The notes beneath the pieces are model-generated. The model was not told where the DNA came from and made no database searches. It saw nothing but the letters and a program-made list of their open reading frames with translations. From an uncultured Spirochaetota bacterium (GTDB lineage: Bacteria; Spirochaetota; Brevinematia; Brevinematales; JAOACQ01), in NCBI GenBank assembly GCA_963783575.1, contig CAWAOD010000014.1:160001-224000 (forward strand): DNA of 64,000 bases, given 5' to 3'. Below, in pieces: positions 51,347 to 62,901 of this stretch (position 1 is its first letter; the number at the start of each line of letters is the position of its first letter). The position numbers and the translations under genes were made by a program.

Positions 51347-52726
51347 TTACTTAAGCGGAATTTTTTCAATCCTGTCTATTTTTGTAATAAGCCAGTATCC
51401 ATGTTTTTTTATCAGAAATAACTTATCATTTTCATTAAACCCATGATAATCTAACTCTATTTTTTTATTTTCACCAAAAACCGGTTCCCATTTTTGATAA
51501 TAGACGGAATATATTGCGTTGGAAGAATTTTCTATTTCATTTGAAATAATTAGGTCGGTAATTCCATAAATATAAAGTGGGGGCATTAGTTTATTTTTAC
51601 CATCGGCAGCCCATTTCTCAGCGGAAAAATAGTTTTTTTCACCGTAAGCAGCGCTTTGTTTTGTTATGACATATAATGTCGAGACTTCATCGATTTCTTT
51701 TTTCCCGGCATTGTTTATAACACAATCCTGCATTGCCGGACTGTCAAGATTATTCATGCTTTCATAAAATAATTCAACCACCTTGCTTGATATAAATCCT
51801 TTTGTGATTCTTATGTTAAAAATTATTTTTTTAAAAGAAAATACCAATAAGATTACAACCGCTAATACTATTGATATAATTATGATATTTAATCTGTTTT
51901 TTTCTAAAAAAACGCTTCTGCCATAAATATGGTCCAATCTTTTCCTATATTTCCCCTGCAGTTTCATCAGATCTTTTTCTTCAACATTATCAATCTTCCT
52001 GATTACACCTTCTTTTATATAATTGCCGATAATTTCAAACCATTCAGATATGGAAACCGATGTCCATTTTTTTTCCATAAAAAAAAATAACAGATTGTCC
52101 GAAATTTCATTGTTAAGATAAAAATTGTTTAAAACCGGTTGTAAAACATTACCGATTCTGATTTTTTTATTCAACTCTTCTTCCGTTTTTCCGGAAAAAG
52201 GAAATTCTCCCGAAAGTATGCGGTATAATATTACTCCTATACTGTATGAGTTTTGAATCCGGTCTTCGGTGATATACGGATGATTTACGATAAAATAATT
52301 TCCGATTTTATATTCTTCATCTAAAGATTCTCTCAATAATTCCATAACTTTGTAAGGCAAAAACAGTATGGAGCCGTCTTTAAGGAAGTATATTGCATCA
52401 AGCTGAATCGGTATTGCGACGCCTCTCTTATTTTCAAGTTCATTAAGAGCCGAGACAAGCCTGTAAATATAATTAAGCCCTTCTTCAGAATTAAGGCTGA
52501 TAACTTCTGATAAAGAGGTACCTTCAAAATGAGGACCATAAAGATAGAGATTTTCTTTATGCAGAATTCCTGTGAAACGCCATTCTTCGATAGAATCGTC
52601 TTTCAGGATATAACCCGGATATTTTTTTAATTCGAGTAAATTCCTGAATGATGCATCGTCAGCATTAAAATTGAGATTAAATCCGCAATAAAGATTTTTG
52701 TCTTCTTTAATTTCAACAGGTTGCAT
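51347..52726 (-). CDS. Membrane protein with degenerate protein-kinase-like N-terminal domain
   Basis: YSIGVILYRILSGEFPF resembles kinase subdomain IX; single TM near residue 280; no HxD or DFG. Confidence 0.55.
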   Translation of the reverse strand: MQPVEIKEDKNLYCGFNLNFNADDASFRNLLELKKYPGYILKDDSIEEWRFTGILHKENLYLYGPHFEGTSLSEVISLNSEEGLNYIYRLVSALNELENKRGVAIPIQLDAIYFLKDGSILFLPYKVMELLRESLDEEYKIGNYFIVNHPYITEDRIQNSYSIGVILYRILSGEFPFSGKTEEELNKKIRIGNVLQPVLNNFYLNNEISDNLLFFFMEKKWTSVSISEWFEIIGNYIKEGVIRKIDNVEEKDLMKLQGKYRKRLDHIYGRSVFLEKNRLNIIIISIVLAVVILLVFSFKKIIFNIRITKGFISSKVVELFYESMNNLDSPAMQDCVINNAGKKEIDEVSTLYVITKQSAAYGEKNYFSAEKWAADGKNKLMPPLYIYGITDLIISNEIENSSNAIYSVYYQKWEPVFGENKKIELDYHGFNENDKLFLIKKHGYWLITKIDRIEKIPLK

Positions 52727-57888: not shown

Positions 57889-60800
57889 TTATGAATTCCC
57901 ATCAATAATAGTTTCAAATAAGAATACCTGTTCTGCGATTATTTTTTCTCCGTCAATTTTACCCTTTATGAGATATATTATGTTGTTTTTCAATATCTGC
58001 AGAAATTTTAAGTAAACTTTTGGGAAAAATACGACTTCTGTCGAACCTGTTCTGTCACTGAATTGTGAAAAAGCCATAGTACTGCCGTTCCTGGTTTTGA
58101 CTGACCGTATTTTATACAAATATCCTATAAATGATCCATAGCTGAGCCTGTCAAGATTTTCAATCTTGTCGAATTGATGTTCTTTGAGGTAATCCAGATA
58201 ACGGTCCAACGGATGATGGCTGATAAACAGATCTGTCGCTTCAAATTCAAATCTGAATTTGTCTTCTTTTGAGTCATTAAAATTGTTTAAATTATTATCC
58301 CCGGTAGATTGAACTGCCAACCTGCGGTTTATTAAAGTTTTAATTTCGGGAATCGATGAATAATCGGTAAATAAAGAACCTTCCTCATTAGATTGTTTTT
58401 TTGAGAAAAAACTTGATATATCCGGGAGAATTGATAAAAGCAATTTACGTGAATATCCATATTTATCAAAAACGCCGGCTTTAATAAGAAATTCAATAGA
58501 TTTTAAATGTAAACCCCGATCTTTTAATCTAAAATAAAAATCAATAAAATCTTTGTATTCGCCATTCTTATTTCTTTCCCTGACAATTTCCCTGGACAAT
58601 TTTGTACCTACATATTTAACAAATGCCAGACCGCAACGGATATTTCCATTTTCTTTTGAACACAAAGTCTTACTGTAATTTATATCTATTGATAAAGTAT
58701 GAAATAAATAAATTTTATTATGAAATCTAAGATCCATAAGATAACGGTTTATTCTGTCTTCATTTCCATGATTATTATTAATTGATGAAATATAATATTC
58801 GAGAGGATGATGATTTTTTAAATAAGCGCATGTATATGCATAAAGCGCGTATACAGTTGAATGGGCTTTGTTTATGCTGAAACTTCCAAAATCTACCAGA
58901 ATAGCAAATAGCCGGTTTGCCTGTTCAAATTCAAGACCGTTTGAAACACAGCTCTGTATAATTTCATCTTTAAGTGTTATGATATGTGTGTTATTCTTAG
59001 TGAATAAAGATTTTTTTAGATTCTCAATTTTGTCCCAGTCCAGACCGGCTTTTTCATGCATCAGTCTTAATAATTGTTCCTGATAAATAAATAAACCATG
59101 AGTATCGGAAGCAATTGAATCAAGCTCATCAACTTTATTGAAATTTAATTTTTGATTTTTATGGTTTATATATTTTTCAGTCAACCCGGATTTGAAAGAA
59201 ACAGGCCGGCATAATGCGATTATATCCGAAATTTCATTTATTGACTGTGGTTTTAATTTTTTTAACAATTCTCTTGTTATATTACTTTCCAATTGAAAAA
59301 CGGCTGTTGTATTCCCTTCAGCCAATAAATCAAAAGTATTTTGATCATTATCGGGAATTATTTTAATCTCCGATCTGCGCATAGTTTCATTTATTACCGA
59401 TATGATATGCAATCCAAGGATATCAATTTTGAAAATACCTGTATCCTCAAGATCATCATTAGGTATTTGGGCAAAATTATTTCTTTTTAAAGTATATTCA
59501 AGAGATGAATATTTATTAATTCCTTCCGGAATAATAATTATGCTTCCAGAATGAATTGAGCTATGAGAAATTAACCCCTCGATTTTTATGATATAATCAA
59601 AAAAATCGTGTATATCCGGGTCATTGTCATAGAAATCCTTCATTCTTCTTTCTTCTTTAATAAGATGGTATAAAAATCTGTTATCAGACATCTTGTTTTC
59701 TAAAAAATAATTATAAACAGATGGAATTAAGGACTTAATTTTATTGATCTTATCATGGTTAAGCTTAAAATAATCGGAAAATTCATTAATCAGTGAACGT
59801 GCTGTCGAATGATGTATTGATGCAGAATATGAAACATTCTGCCTGCCGTATTTCGAACTCAGAAAAGAAAAAATCAGATTTCTTTTTTCCCAGGCGATTT
59901 CAATAATAATTTCTGGCAAATGTAATTTTCCCAAATTCAGGAATGATTCAAAGAGTAAGTTGTATTTAACAGGATCAACTTTTGTTATTCCCAGAAGGAA
60001 TAAAATTAATGAAGAACAGGCTGAACCATTTCCATAACCGTAAGGAATTTTCTTTTTCTTTAAAAAATGAACCGTATCAAAAATAATCAAGAAAATATCT
60101 GAAATTTTCATTTTATAAAGCATATCAAGTTCTGCATCCAATCGATTCCGATATTCTTCTCTATCACAAAAATTTTTTAGTCGGAGAGAACATATATGTT
60201 TTACTTTTTCGAATGAATTTTTGTATAATACCGGAATCTTGAAGCTTTTTACATTAAAATCAGTTTCAATTTTTTGAAATAATATTTCTGAATTATCAAT
60301 TAAATTAATATGGTTTTTAAATATTAGATAAAAATCTTCTTTATTTTTCAGTGAATAATCAAATTCCGTTGATAAATGTGAATTTATTTCCTTTATAAAT
60401 GGATTTTTATGGCTGCTGTTTATAAGAATATCAAAAGCCGGTTTGTCTTTTAAGAAATACCTGGCTTCGCAGGAAGCAATGGCATTTAGATTGTAACGGT
60501 CGATTACATTAAGTAAATCCTTTATTTCTTGAATTTTATGGCCACCGGTATAATTTACCTCTACATAAAAATTATTTTTAAAATGTTTTTGATAACATTC
60601 AATAGTTTCTTCTAAGATTTGAGATGAAATCATATTTTTTATTAATTCGGATTCGGCCAAAATAGCCAGGCCTTCTTTACAGTGTATAAGGTTTTCAAGA
60701 GATATTTCATAATGATTTTCATTGATATAATTTTGATGAATTAATGTATTTAGACGGAACAAATTCTCAAGGCCGGCATTGTTTAAAGCAATCAGATTGA

Positions 60801-61038
60801 TGTGATATTGATTCTTTCCGTTTATACCCTTAATAAATATTTCCAATCCATAAACCGGTCTAATTCCTTCAGAACGGCATAACCCGGTCAATTTAATAAA
60901 TCCGTATGTAGAAAATGTATCTGTTAATGCGCATCCTTTAAAGCTATGATAGACAGCAAAACTAACCAGATCTTCTACCTTCAAAAGCGAAGATAAAAAA
61001 GAATATTCGCTGTGATTATGAAAGTTGATGAATCCCAT
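57889..61038 (-). CDS. dnaE: DNA polymerase III alpha (DnaE) homologue with degenerate active sites
   Basis: HNHSEYS, LGITKVDP, KIDILGL, VFQLES, YQEQ, NKAHS, C-terminal OB fold; the catalytic PDxDxD motif reads PEIIIE. Confidence 0.9.
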   Translation of the reverse strand: MGFINFHNHSEYSFLSSLLKVEDLVSFAVYHSFKGCALTDTFSTYGFIKLTGLCRSEGIRPVYGLEIFIKGINGKNQYHINLIALNNAGLENLFRLNTLIHQNYINENHYEISLENLIHCKEGLAILAESELIKNMISSQILEETIECYQKHFKNNFYVEVNYTGGHKIQEIKDLLNVIDRYNLNAIASCEARYFLKDKPAFDILINSSHKNPFIKEINSHLSTEFDYSLKNKEDFYLIFKNHINLIDNSEILFQKIETDFNVKSFKIPVLYKNSFEKVKHICSLRLKNFCDREEYRNRLDAELDMLYKMKISDIFLIIFDTVHFLKKKKIPYGYGNGSACSSLILFLLGITKVDPVKYNLLFESFLNLGKLHLPEIIIEIAWEKRNLIFSFLSSKYGRQNVSYSASIHHSTARSLINEFSDYFKLNHDKINKIKSLIPSVYNYFLENKMSDNRFLYHLIKEERRMKDFYDNDPDIHDFFDYIIKIEGLISHSSIHSGSIIIIPEGINKYSSLEYTLKRNNFAQIPNDDLEDTGIFKIDILGLHIISVINETMRRSEIKIIPDNDQNTFDLLAEGNTTAVFQLESNITRELLKKLKPQSINEISDIIALCRPVSFKSGLTEKYINHKNQKLNFNKVDELDSIASDTHGLFIYQEQLLRLMHEKAGLDWDKIENLKKSLFTKNNTHIITLKDEIIQSCVSNGLEFEQANRLFAILVDFGSFSINKAHSTVYALYAYTCAYLKNHHPLEYYISSINNNHGNEDRINRYLMDLRFHNKIYLFHTLSIDINYSKTLCSKENGNIRCGLAFVKYVGTKLSREIVRERNKNGEYKDFIDFYFRLKDRGLHLKSIEFLIKAGVFDKYGYSRKLLLSILPDISSFFSKKQSNEEGSLFTDYSSIPEIKTLINRRLAVQSTGDNNLNNFNDSKEDKFRFEFEATDLFISHHPLDRYLDYLKEHQFDKIENLDRLSYGSFIGYLYKIRSVKTRNGSTMAFSQFSDRTGSTEVVFFPKVYLKFLQILKNNIIYLIKGKIDGEKIIAEQVFLFETIIDGNS

Positions 61039-61041
61039 TCA

Positions 61042-62502
61042 TCAATCAACCAATTTTTGAATCTGCTTACCCGCGGCTTTAATGAAGGAATCGAATACTC
61101 CGCTTGCAGATATAGATGTAGCGCTTATTTTGATATTCTTCGCCGAAAGAATTTCACCGCTTGAAGTATCCAGGAGCTGTGCTGAAACTGAATATACTCC
61201 GAGATATCTTTCCAATGTTTCATCATACTTTGGGGGTTCAAATGATGATACAAATAATACAAATGCCCTTTTAATGCCTATTACCGATAGTTTGTCCAAT
61301 GCGTTTTTTTTCGCTTGAGATATGTCGTCTAAAGAAACTGTATCAGAAAAATTTACAACTTTATACCCGCGGTCAATTAAAAAGGATTGGGCTTCGGAAG
61401 CGAGATTCGGAAGCTGTTTTAAGCCGTCATCCGATTTAAGTATCGCAATGACAACAATTGGTATGGTTCTATTCTGCTCGGATATAGTTTTAAACTCGCT
61501 ATAAACGGATATTTTACCGGCTTTTTCCTGAAGAGTGGATGAATATGTTTGATAATCTTTACCTAAATCGGAAATATCCTGAAAGTCAATATTTAATAGT
61601 GCATAGAGTCTATTCTCGTTATTGACTTCTTTTAATTTGTTTATCGTGCAGATAACAATACCGTTGTCATCTGATACGGCACTTCTTGAATAATCACCGT
61701 CGTTGTTCCTGAGTACAAATGATATTTTTAGACCCCCGGCAGGAATTTTTCCTTTTTCGGATGAGTAAAATACCCTGTATGAAAAAGAGCCTCCTTTTGC
61801 AGTATCAATTATGTTTGTATTGCTGTATGCTTCTATAAAAGTATTTTCCAGGACTTTACCCGCTTTGTTTATATAAATCGGAAATTCATCGGTCCTTTCT
61901 TTCACTCTTGTGGAGCTTATAGCTGCTGTAAGGTATGAATTGACAGCATCCGATATTTTTCCGGAATCCAATGCCTGATCTGCAACTTTGAGGCTGTTGT
62001 CAACCAATGCCAATTTTCTTTGAATCTCGGATAATATCCTGTTCCTCTCCCTTTCAAGATTTTTATTGGAAATCCTGGACAGAACCCATACTTTATAATA
62101 AACAAGTCCTGAGTCCTTGTTTTCTTCTTTATAAGTATCAATAAGTTCCACACCCGAAAGATTCACAGCGCTCTGGCTTTTAACATTTTCCTGATAACTT
62201 TTCCTTAATGTCTCATTATCGTTTAAACTGCCTGAAGTAGTAAATACCTTATCAACGGTAGTCTCTTCAAATATCGTATTGGCGATTTTCCCCTTGGCGT
62301 TTTGAAGAGCTTTATCCTTAATTTCCTCAAACGATCCAATATCCTCGGTATAGCCGACCACATATAAATATTCCTTATCATGATTCGGCTGTGTAATCCA
62401 GGTCGGTTCGCCGGAAATAACAGTATTTGTGGCTGTGTAAACAGTATTTATTATAAAATACAAACTTAAAAGAAAAATAATTAATTTCAATGAACTTTTC
62501 AT
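61042..62502 (-). CDS. Exported LPP20-like domain protein
   Basis: Signal peptide; PTWI..YLYVVG..KALQNAKGKIA pattern; C-terminal AQLLDTSSGEIL (CsgG/TolB-N-like). Confidence 0.6.
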   Translation of the reverse strand: MKSSLKLIIFLLSLYFIINTVYTATNTVISGEPTWITQPNHDKEYLYVVGYTEDIGSFEEIKDKALQNAKGKIANTIFEETTVDKVFTTSGSLNDNETLRKSYQENVKSQSAVNLSGVELIDTYKEENKDSGLVYYKVWVLSRISNKNLERERNRILSEIQRKLALVDNSLKVADQALDSGKISDAVNSYLTAAISSTRVKERTDEFPIYINKAGKVLENTFIEAYSNTNIIDTAKGGSFSYRVFYSSEKGKIPAGGLKISFVLRNNDGDYSRSAVSDDNGIVICTINKLKEVNNENRLYALLNIDFQDISDLGKDYQTYSSTLQEKAGKISVYSEFKTISEQNRTIPIVVIAILKSDDGLKQLPNLASEAQSFLIDRGYKVVNFSDTVSLDDISQAKKNALDKLSVIGIKRAFVLFVSSFEPPKYDETLERYLGVYSVSAQLLDTSSGEILSAKNIKISATSISASGVFDSFIKAAGKQIQKLVD

Positions 62503-62901
62503 TCAATCCTCCGCTTTTATTGATATTAAATTACTAAAAATATTTAGTTTTTTAGAACAGCCCTTAATATAATACTAACTCAAATCATTATAATCAACAA
62601 ATTATAATTTTTCAATCAAATATAATTATCAAATTTGATTTTATATTGATTATATCAAATACTGTGCCAATTAATTATTATAAAAAAATAATTATTTCTA
62701 TTGGCCAAGCATTCATCTTGAATACTTTATTAGATAAAAACTTAATTATAATGTAAGATTATTATGAAAAAGAGGAGATTTTGTATGAGAAATTCCCCCT
62801 TTAAAAGGGAGGCAGGAAAATATAATTTATCTGCGGTTTGAATCAATAACCGATTTTAATTAGAAATGATATATCTTAATCGATACAGTATAAAATAATA
62901 T

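Follow-up and report, generated by a model that had tools for sequence, protein, structure and literature searches.

We analysed a 64,000-nucleotide stretch of DNA (the window: positions 160,001 to 224,000 of contig CAWAOD010000014.1, assembly GCA_963783575.1) from an uncultured spirochaete of the order Brevinematales, and in particular the second dnaE gene that it carries on the minus strand at 57889..61038. This gene encodes a 1049-residue paralogue of the DNA polymerase III (Pol III) alpha subunit in which the polymerase site is inactivated and the tau-binding C-terminal domain (CTD) is missing. Judged from its sequence, the second DnaE is a DnaE-fold pseudo-polymerase, real and conserved. 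It belongs to a family in which catalytically intact (live) and inactivated (dead) orthologues coexist, in which catalysis has been lost at least four times independently, and whose dead copies are under purifying selection. The simplest explanation for a gene that persists while its chemistry is lost again and again is selection on a second function that the live members also have. We give a probability of about 0.5 to the proposal that this function is that of a clamp- and DNA-binding scaffold, a non-catalytic role that would be older than the loss of catalysis.

An earlier interpretation of the DNA, made without database searches (the sequence-only reading), had described an uninterrupted open reading frame (ORF) with the complete architecture of Pol III alpha. 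The frame was confirmed, with no internal stop on the minus strand between 57889 and 61038. As to the architecture, PHP, palm, finger, helix-hairpin-helix (HhH) and OB domains were all recognised by Pfam, but the protein is not full-length: its chain stops after the OB domain (57892..58188), which is the last domain both in Pfam and in the AlphaFold2 model, and the CTD of the canonical 1179-residue copy is gone. Pfam placed the PHP domain at 60253..61038 (borders approximate), the fingers at 58759..59403 and a tandem HhH region, kept in dead members, at 58399..58758. The AlphaFold2 model, built from 16 aligned sequences, had a predicted local distance difference test score (pLDDT) of 83.9 and matched solved DnaE structures in Foldseek with template-modelling (TM) scores of up to 0.83. 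The second DnaE has a C-family, DnaE-type fold with a PHP-Pol3-(HhH)2-OB architecture.

Residues were numbered after E. coli Pol III alpha by alignment to the structure 5fku. In this alignment D401 corresponds to E376 (codon at 59911-59913), D403 to I378 (59905-59907), D405 to E380 (59899-59901), R390 to S365, R396 to K371 and R362 to N337, while D555 is kept as D539 (59422..59424). Thus, the three aspartates whose joint presence we took to mark an intact active site, D401, D403 and D555, read E, I and D. The palm motif (59896..59952) contains PEIIIEI (59896-59916), GNGS replaces GRGS (60022..60033), KIDILGL (59410-59430) holds the surviving aspartate, the fingers read CRPVS for YRPGP (59197-59211) and LKKSLFTK (58996-59019), and EGSLF, a weak clamp-binding-type motif lacking the glutamine (Q) and keeping LF, lies at 58369..58383. 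All six motifs were found where the sequence-only reading had placed them, and its statements that D401, D403, R390 and R396 are lost and that only the third aspartate remains held up in the alignment, with R362 and D405 changed in addition. Two of its points stood in part. The altered PHP ligands are real but do not belong to the inactivation, being common to orthologues with an intact polymerase site; and the change from LRRAMGKK to LKKSLFTK is present but only partly specific, since live orthologues already carry RKAL instead of RRAMG.

Could these substitutions be a sequencing or assembly error? The assembly does contain at least one frame break, in polA, but the second dnaE departs from the consensus at 47 of 211 live-invariant positions with its frame unbroken. 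Several of the changes involve two bases, and the codons at lost sites have undergone multi-base changes (D403 is now ATT and R362 is now AAT). R362N and R396K also occur in the independent sequence P0035, and eleven other genomes carry dead copies. The multi-base changes and the losses common to P0035 make an error, already thought unlikely in the sequence-only reading, extremely improbable. A weak or atypical polymerase whose metals are bound by E376, E380 and D539 is also very improbable: D555 is kept, D401 and D405 have changed only to glutamate and the fold is intact, but D403 is now isoleucine, R362 and R390 are gone, and the residues missing from other dead members are not the same ones and include D555. 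Furthermore, a published survey calls D401, D403 and D555 absolutely conserved in the C family (PMC3919608).

The source genome (G000; 4.9 Mb in 18 contigs, 89.85% complete) contains exactly two C-family palm matches, both of them DnaE. The other match, on contig C9 (233632-237171), is a canonical DnaE1 of 1179 residues in which PHP ligands, GRGS, PDIDVDF, YRPGP and QMGLF are all intact; it scores 1233 bits against the NCBIfam model PRK05673, compared to 592 bits for the second DnaE (cut-off 1002 bits). The search for a canonical dnaE beside the second one was thus successful, and the second DnaE is not the sole C-family polymerase of its genome. PolC was not found in this 89.85% complete genome. 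The genome also encodes two Y-family polymerases, one DinB-like (C14:473425-474507) and one UmuC-like (C14:326454-327737, after a SRAP-like gene).

We searched for the family of the second DnaE in 61 and then in 43 genomes, the order being represented by 35 genomes in families f1 to f6. It was present in 22 of the 35: 11/12 in f1, 1/1 in f2, 2/2 in f3, 4/4 in f4, 4/4 in f5 and 0/12 in f6, the single f1 genome without a member being 57% complete. All three aspartates and the arginines are kept in 10 of the 22 (two of the ten are split or partial in the assembly) and not in the other 12. Protein searches added 14 sequences (8 live and 6 dead) after duplicates of genome rows had been dropped. The family forms one clade with a support of 100 (FastTree); its branching broadly agrees with that of the canonical DnaE1 proteins of these genomes, with exceptions at some forks, and in the pair G006/G003 the synonymous divergence (dS) of the paralogue equals that of the canonical gene (1.56 vs 1.55). 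Within this spirochaete order the family constitutes an old lineage of second DnaEs that has been passed on vertically at one locus. Its profile scores merge with those of ordinary DnaE at about 750-720 bits, and the 150 best matches contain no close sister group. A search for related loci returned only distant canonical-type DnaE, at 5 loci in genome contigs and among the best 80 of 588 in metagenome contigs (22-32% identity in the latter). A match in the f6 genome G029 (L241, G029:C7) was not counted as a paralogue: it is a DnaE1-type fragment with QINLF and CTD on a 1.3-kb contig. G029 already has a complete dnaE, and the fragment is probably contamination.

The sequence-only reading had proposed to look for the aspartate loss in orthologues. 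Other orthologues are indeed dead, but the loss is not one shared event; that about half of the orthologues have a complete active site and that the losses are independent had not been foreseen. We built a tree (IQ-TREE) from the columns outside the polymerase core, with 20 family rows and 3 outgroup rows, from which near-duplicates, P0032-P0035 and four f4 forms were left out. This core-free tree required four changes of state in 200/200 bootstrap trees, and a single dead clade was rejected (approximately unbiased test, p=0.0014). The source-genome copy nested among the live copies of G005, G002 and P0002 (support 96/95 and 97/96). Furthermore, the 14 full-architecture dead sequences displayed 14 different D401/D403/D555 triplets. 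Because the canonical DnaE is active, we read the state changes as losses, which gives at least four independent losses of catalysis. The canonical tree places the source genome beside genus g3, and the two could share one loss if the paralogue tree were wrong at that fork; their substitutions differ. The f4 forms (774-787 residues), in which most of the palm and thumb is lost, may represent a further loss. The AlphaFold2 model of the 787-residue form was poor (pLDDT 49.9) and we used profile comparison instead, by which, together with synteny, the f4 forms are orthologues (361.6 to the family vs 114.2 to canonical DnaE).

We analysed selection on the dead copies by the ratio of nonsynonymous to synonymous divergence (dN/dS; Nei-Gojobori), for which many pairs were saturated, including all pairs with the source-genome copy. 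Dead pairs with measurable dS gave values of 0.11-0.19 (G006/G003 0.142, G014/G024 0.170) and live pairs 0.12-0.14, with overlapping bootstrap ranges (two dead pairs: 0.108-0.180 and 0.137-0.214; one live pair: 0.107-0.172). No broken frame was observed among the dead copies of 12 genomes, though dS was saturated between many of them. When neutral decay to the divergence of the source copy was simulated, 0 of 300 frames per template stayed free of stops for either of two templates (the mean was 12-13 stops). With random mutation to no more than 5% divergence, the open frames numbered only 21-27 of 300. Thus, the dead copies are under purifying selection; the dead relatives are full-length and are not fragmented, neutral copies, in support of the retained non-catalytic role that the sequence-only reading had preferred to an error.

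This selection is not evenly spread over the protein. In live pairs the palm and thumb are about level with the slowest-evolving regions and the HhH-OB part is fastest, whereas in dead pairs the palm and thumb are fastest in genus g3, and the fingers and palm in the f3 pair. Losses at live-invariant positions are more frequent within the core than in the rest of the protein in 13/13 dead members and in 0/7 leave-clade-out live controls, and the contrast persists without the seven defining residues (p 0.02 to 1e-13 across the 13). Dead members keep 65-90% of live-invariant positions in PHP and 65-91% in HhH, and 83-100% in the LF linker and 67-100% in OB, each of the latter two with six positions. 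Dead members therefore erode the palm, thumb and fingers, while PHP, HhH, OB and the LF motif stay. Slow decay of a dispensable accessory polymerase, with selection acting only against misfolding or polar effects, is a disfavoured and improbable account of this pattern. It would fit the dN of full-architecture dead pairs, which exceeds that of canonical DnaE1 by a factor of about 1.9-3.3, the series that runs from intact through thumb-less and palm-less forms to genomes in which the gene was not found, and the position of the gene in genus g3 before rimP-nusA-infB-like genes (names read from the sequences), where polarity could matter. However, live pairs also reach 1.1-2.9 times the canonical dN, dN/dS is about equal in dead and live pairs, erosion is domain-specific and frames remain unbroken. 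In the source genome the gene after the second dnaE is convergent, so that polarity cannot explain the intact frame there.

In DnaE1, the HhH and OB domains bind DNA and the LF motif binds the clamp. We propose that the second DnaE most likely docks on the beta clamp through its LF motif, holds DNA through HhH and OB and serves, at primer ends or gaps loaded with a clamp, as placeholder or adaptor; the conserved PHP domain would be the likely surface for binding a partner. Fork poisoning by a dead polymerase, as by the dominant-negative D403E mutant, reportedly depends on tau; lacking the CTD, the second DnaE would have no tau to keep it in the replisome and should therefore leave the fork unpoisoned. 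As no LexA was found in the order, the gene is probably expressed constitutively, in an operon with the upstream lipoprotein gene. Missing CTD and remodelled PHP site are common to all family members, and these traits are therefore older than the loss of catalysis. Scaffold, regulator and decoy, the roles named by the sequence-only reading, are candidate functions.

Consistent with clamp binding, LF is kept in 33/33 family members that cover the motif, including the forms of about 780 residues that lack most of the palm. A complex model of the source-genome DnaN with residues 775-945 of the second DnaE scored 0.35 against 0.00 for the best control, with runs agreeing in at least 82% of contacts and a partner pLDDT of at least 68. 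The score mark was reached by 116/157 solved complexes and 2/215 mismatches, and at scores of 0.60 or lower by only 18/157 and both mismatches. The prediction with DnaN that the sequence-only reading had suggested thus came out positive but weak, and a like complex, from E. coli, is already solved (5fkv), which the pass may simply reflect.

Several findings weigh against the scaffold proposal. The source-genome copy has no close relative of unsaturated dS, and it shows the weakest core-versus-rest contrast of the 13 dead members (31/120 vs 10/84, p=0.02). The Q that matters in the clamp-motif consensus, and that the canonical copy has (QMGLF), is missing from its EGSLF, as it is from DnaE2 and DnaE3, for which weak binding has been inferred; motifs of this weak kind are taken in PMC3919608 to indicate little pressure for binding the clamp strongly. 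In f6 the family was found in none of 12 genomes and is dispensable there, and no LF linker is seen in an eroded DnaE-like protein from the sister order that may be an orthologue. Finally, two obvious partners are unsupported: no stand-alone DnaQ was found in the source genome, and Y-family polymerases do not co-distribute with the family (0/4 in f4).

More specific roles were considered and rejected. A dead DnaE paired with a live Y-family polymerase, an inverse mutasome, is not supported, as Y-family genes were not found in 4/4 dead f4 genomes and in 5/10 live-copy genomes. For delivery of epsilon, the sole DnaQ-type domain of the source genome is inserted in RecJ, and a protein of similar length also occurs in f6, which lacks the family. 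Against replacement of Pol I, polA was matched in 44/46 genomes; against SOS control, LexA was above cut-off in 0/35 genomes of the order. In agreement with the sequence-only reading, neither imuA/imuB nor any Y-family gene was found among the neighbours of the second dnaE.

The main rival to the scaffold proposal, which we consider unlikely, holds that the selected function is an enzyme site in the remodelled PHP domain (a pyrophosphatase or phosphoesterase), the rest of the protein being kept for fold and targeting. Throughout the family the canonical PHP metal site is changed (D to S, G or A; H to T or L; C lost; D to E191; H to R193), and the remodelled site is conserved alike in live and dead members, in which, as described above, PHP is among the best-kept regions. 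D40, E131, E191 and R193 are almost invariant, the family-specific E131, N162, Y163, E191 and R193 follow the barrel strands of the metal site and would cluster in space, and equivalents of H12, D43, D69 and D201 are present. The E. coli PHP domain, itself without canonical ligands, is reported (PMC4822814) to hydrolyse pyrophosphate with H12 and D19. However, the D19 equivalent in the family is S, G or A; in several members E66 has become Q, K or T and either H7 or H9 is missing; and the forms of about 780 residues lose D40, E191 and R193, yet stay under selection. A purely structural PHP domain is, moreover, said to be known from E. coli.

Directly upstream of the second dnaE lies a gene for an LPP20-like exported protein of 486 residues (61042..62502, minus), which ends 3 bp before the dnaE start. 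This lipoprotein gene holds the same position in 20/22 genomes; of the two exceptions, G003 lacks the gene at the locus and in G024 the contig ends. Within the order the lipoprotein has the same distribution as the second DnaE, being absent from 12/12 f6 genomes (0/12). In all eight sister-order genomes (L243-L250), a DnaE-like ORF of 814-824 residues stands right after rplW-rplB (e.g. L243:1498-3963, minus). It is extremely eroded, with only HhH recognised by Pfam, and is split over two contigs in one genome. Its profile lay somewhat nearer to the family (145.6 over 464 columns) than to canonical DnaE (121.4 over 225), and it may be an orthologue of the second-DnaE family or a separate dead DnaE. 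Both linkages, and the joint absence of lipoprotein and second DnaE from f6, would suit a scaffold co-opted away from the clamp to some other partner or process, for instance a regulator in step with envelope or growth genes, with LF being structural; the missing LF linker of the sister-order relic would suit it as well. We regard such co-option as unlikely. The lipoprotein is exported, and thus improbable as a direct partner, no orthologue of it was found in G003, where a dead DnaE is kept, and the nucleic-acid-binding folds HhH and OB are kept in all forms.

Together with the scaffold proposal, a broader idea can be put forward tentatively: DnaE may have a second, non-catalytic function on clamp and DNA (PHP, HhH, LF, OB) that is separable after duplication, and the family may show the whole route at one locus across the class, from live through full-length dead (with at least four origins), thumb-less and palm-less forms to a barely recognisable relic beside rplB in the sister order. 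If true, the C family would include a class of pseudo-polymerases that has a role of its own in controlling replication. Which domains outlast repeated inactivation indicates where the second function lies, and by assaying a live and a dead member in parallel, polymerase activity can be told apart from the other functions of Pol III alpha.

Further observations concern the surroundings of the gene and other replication genes. The best sigma-70-like match of the region (62587..62615, minus; 11/12, a consensus match only) lies 85 bp before the lipoprotein gene, and such sites are in total near chance (45 vs 36.4 +/- 5.7). Several genomes carry a more distant LPP20-like paralogue of about 520 residues. 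Elsewhere in the window (51347-52726, minus), a 459-residue ORF with a predicted membrane segment gave a weak protein-kinase match (E 9e-4, below cut-off) and is possibly a degenerate kinase. The RecJ-like protein of the source genome (G000:C4:8884-11175, minus), with its inserted DEDDh (DnaQ-type) exonuclease domain, is encoded beside a holB-like gene, and ORFs of similar length (about 750-770 residues) with this domain occur in all families of the order (relatives in L188-L207). In f6, several PHP metal ligands are gone from the sole DnaE of small genomes (L081-L085, L090), in which a stand-alone DnaQ was not found either; this raises the question of the proofreader. The polA gene of the source genome has a frame break (G000:C18:86809-87947) where the genes of relatives are intact, possibly an assembly indel. 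LexA is present in 7/8 sister-order genomes.

How does the second DnaE compare to known systems? It shares with DnaE1 (E. coli 5fku and 2hnh, T. aquaticus 3e0d, M. tuberculosis 7pu7) the order PHP-palm-thumb-fingers-HhH-OB, at the TM scores given above, and PRK05673, the DnaE1 model, is its best NCBIfam match, as it is for live orthologues (724-757 bits), which also carry the DnaE1-type motifs YRPGP, FQLES and FNKSH. It differs in that the family lacks the CTD, has a remodelled PHP domain and a clamp motif without Q, and falls under the 1002-bit cut-off; in the source copy, D401, D403, D405, R362, R390 and R396 are replaced as well. As to descent, profiles favour DnaE1, but in a tree without a PolC root the family has a long branch that lies outside every DnaE1 and DnaE2-like row sampled. 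Like DnaE2, it is a non-essential extra copy beside DnaE1, with no CTD, an inactive PHP domain and a weak clamp motif. Unlike DnaE2, which is catalytically active, it scores 306 bits against PRK05672 (409-435 for live members; cut-off 939), branches with its family apart from four DnaE2-like spirochaete sequences (G048x, G049x, G051x, G052x), and has no SRDF tail and no Y-family or RecA-like neighbour, in an order where LexA was not found. With DnaE3 and DnaEX, as described by Timinskas et al. (PMC3919608), it shares a disrupted PHP site, a clamp motif reduced to LF and a CTD that is often missing, DnaEX being diverged extra DnaE copies left unclassified there. DnaE3, however, is essential and occurs with PolC, which was not found in the source genome.

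Dead copies lie outside the scope of that survey because it required an intact active-site region. Within the passages covered, PMC12926913 reports inactive members of the Y family, but no such group for the C family; in its supplement, four Brevinematales names were unmatched in the full genome list and among the C-family rows listed (at least 2,208), and this 2026 survey thus lists no genome of the order. A literature search found no published dead DnaE or other C-family polymerase and no dnaE study in the order, most subscription papers being outside its reach. What is new here is that live and dead C-family orthologues stand side by side at one locus and serve as their own controls.

The Y family is known to include dead polymerases that act as adaptors. 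Its inactive members, ImuB among them, are polymerase folds without catalytic residues, kept for binding of clamp and partner, which is also the probable role of the second DnaE, in whose family the dead members have lost catalytic residues under purifying selection, as expected of a pseudo-polymerase. The differences are that polymerase family and fold are others, that no partner polymerase is known for the second DnaE, and that live and dead orthologues coexist in its family. Altogether, by their defining features the second DnaE is not DnaE1, DnaE2 or DnaE3, and by analogy it probably works like the inactive Y-family adaptors.

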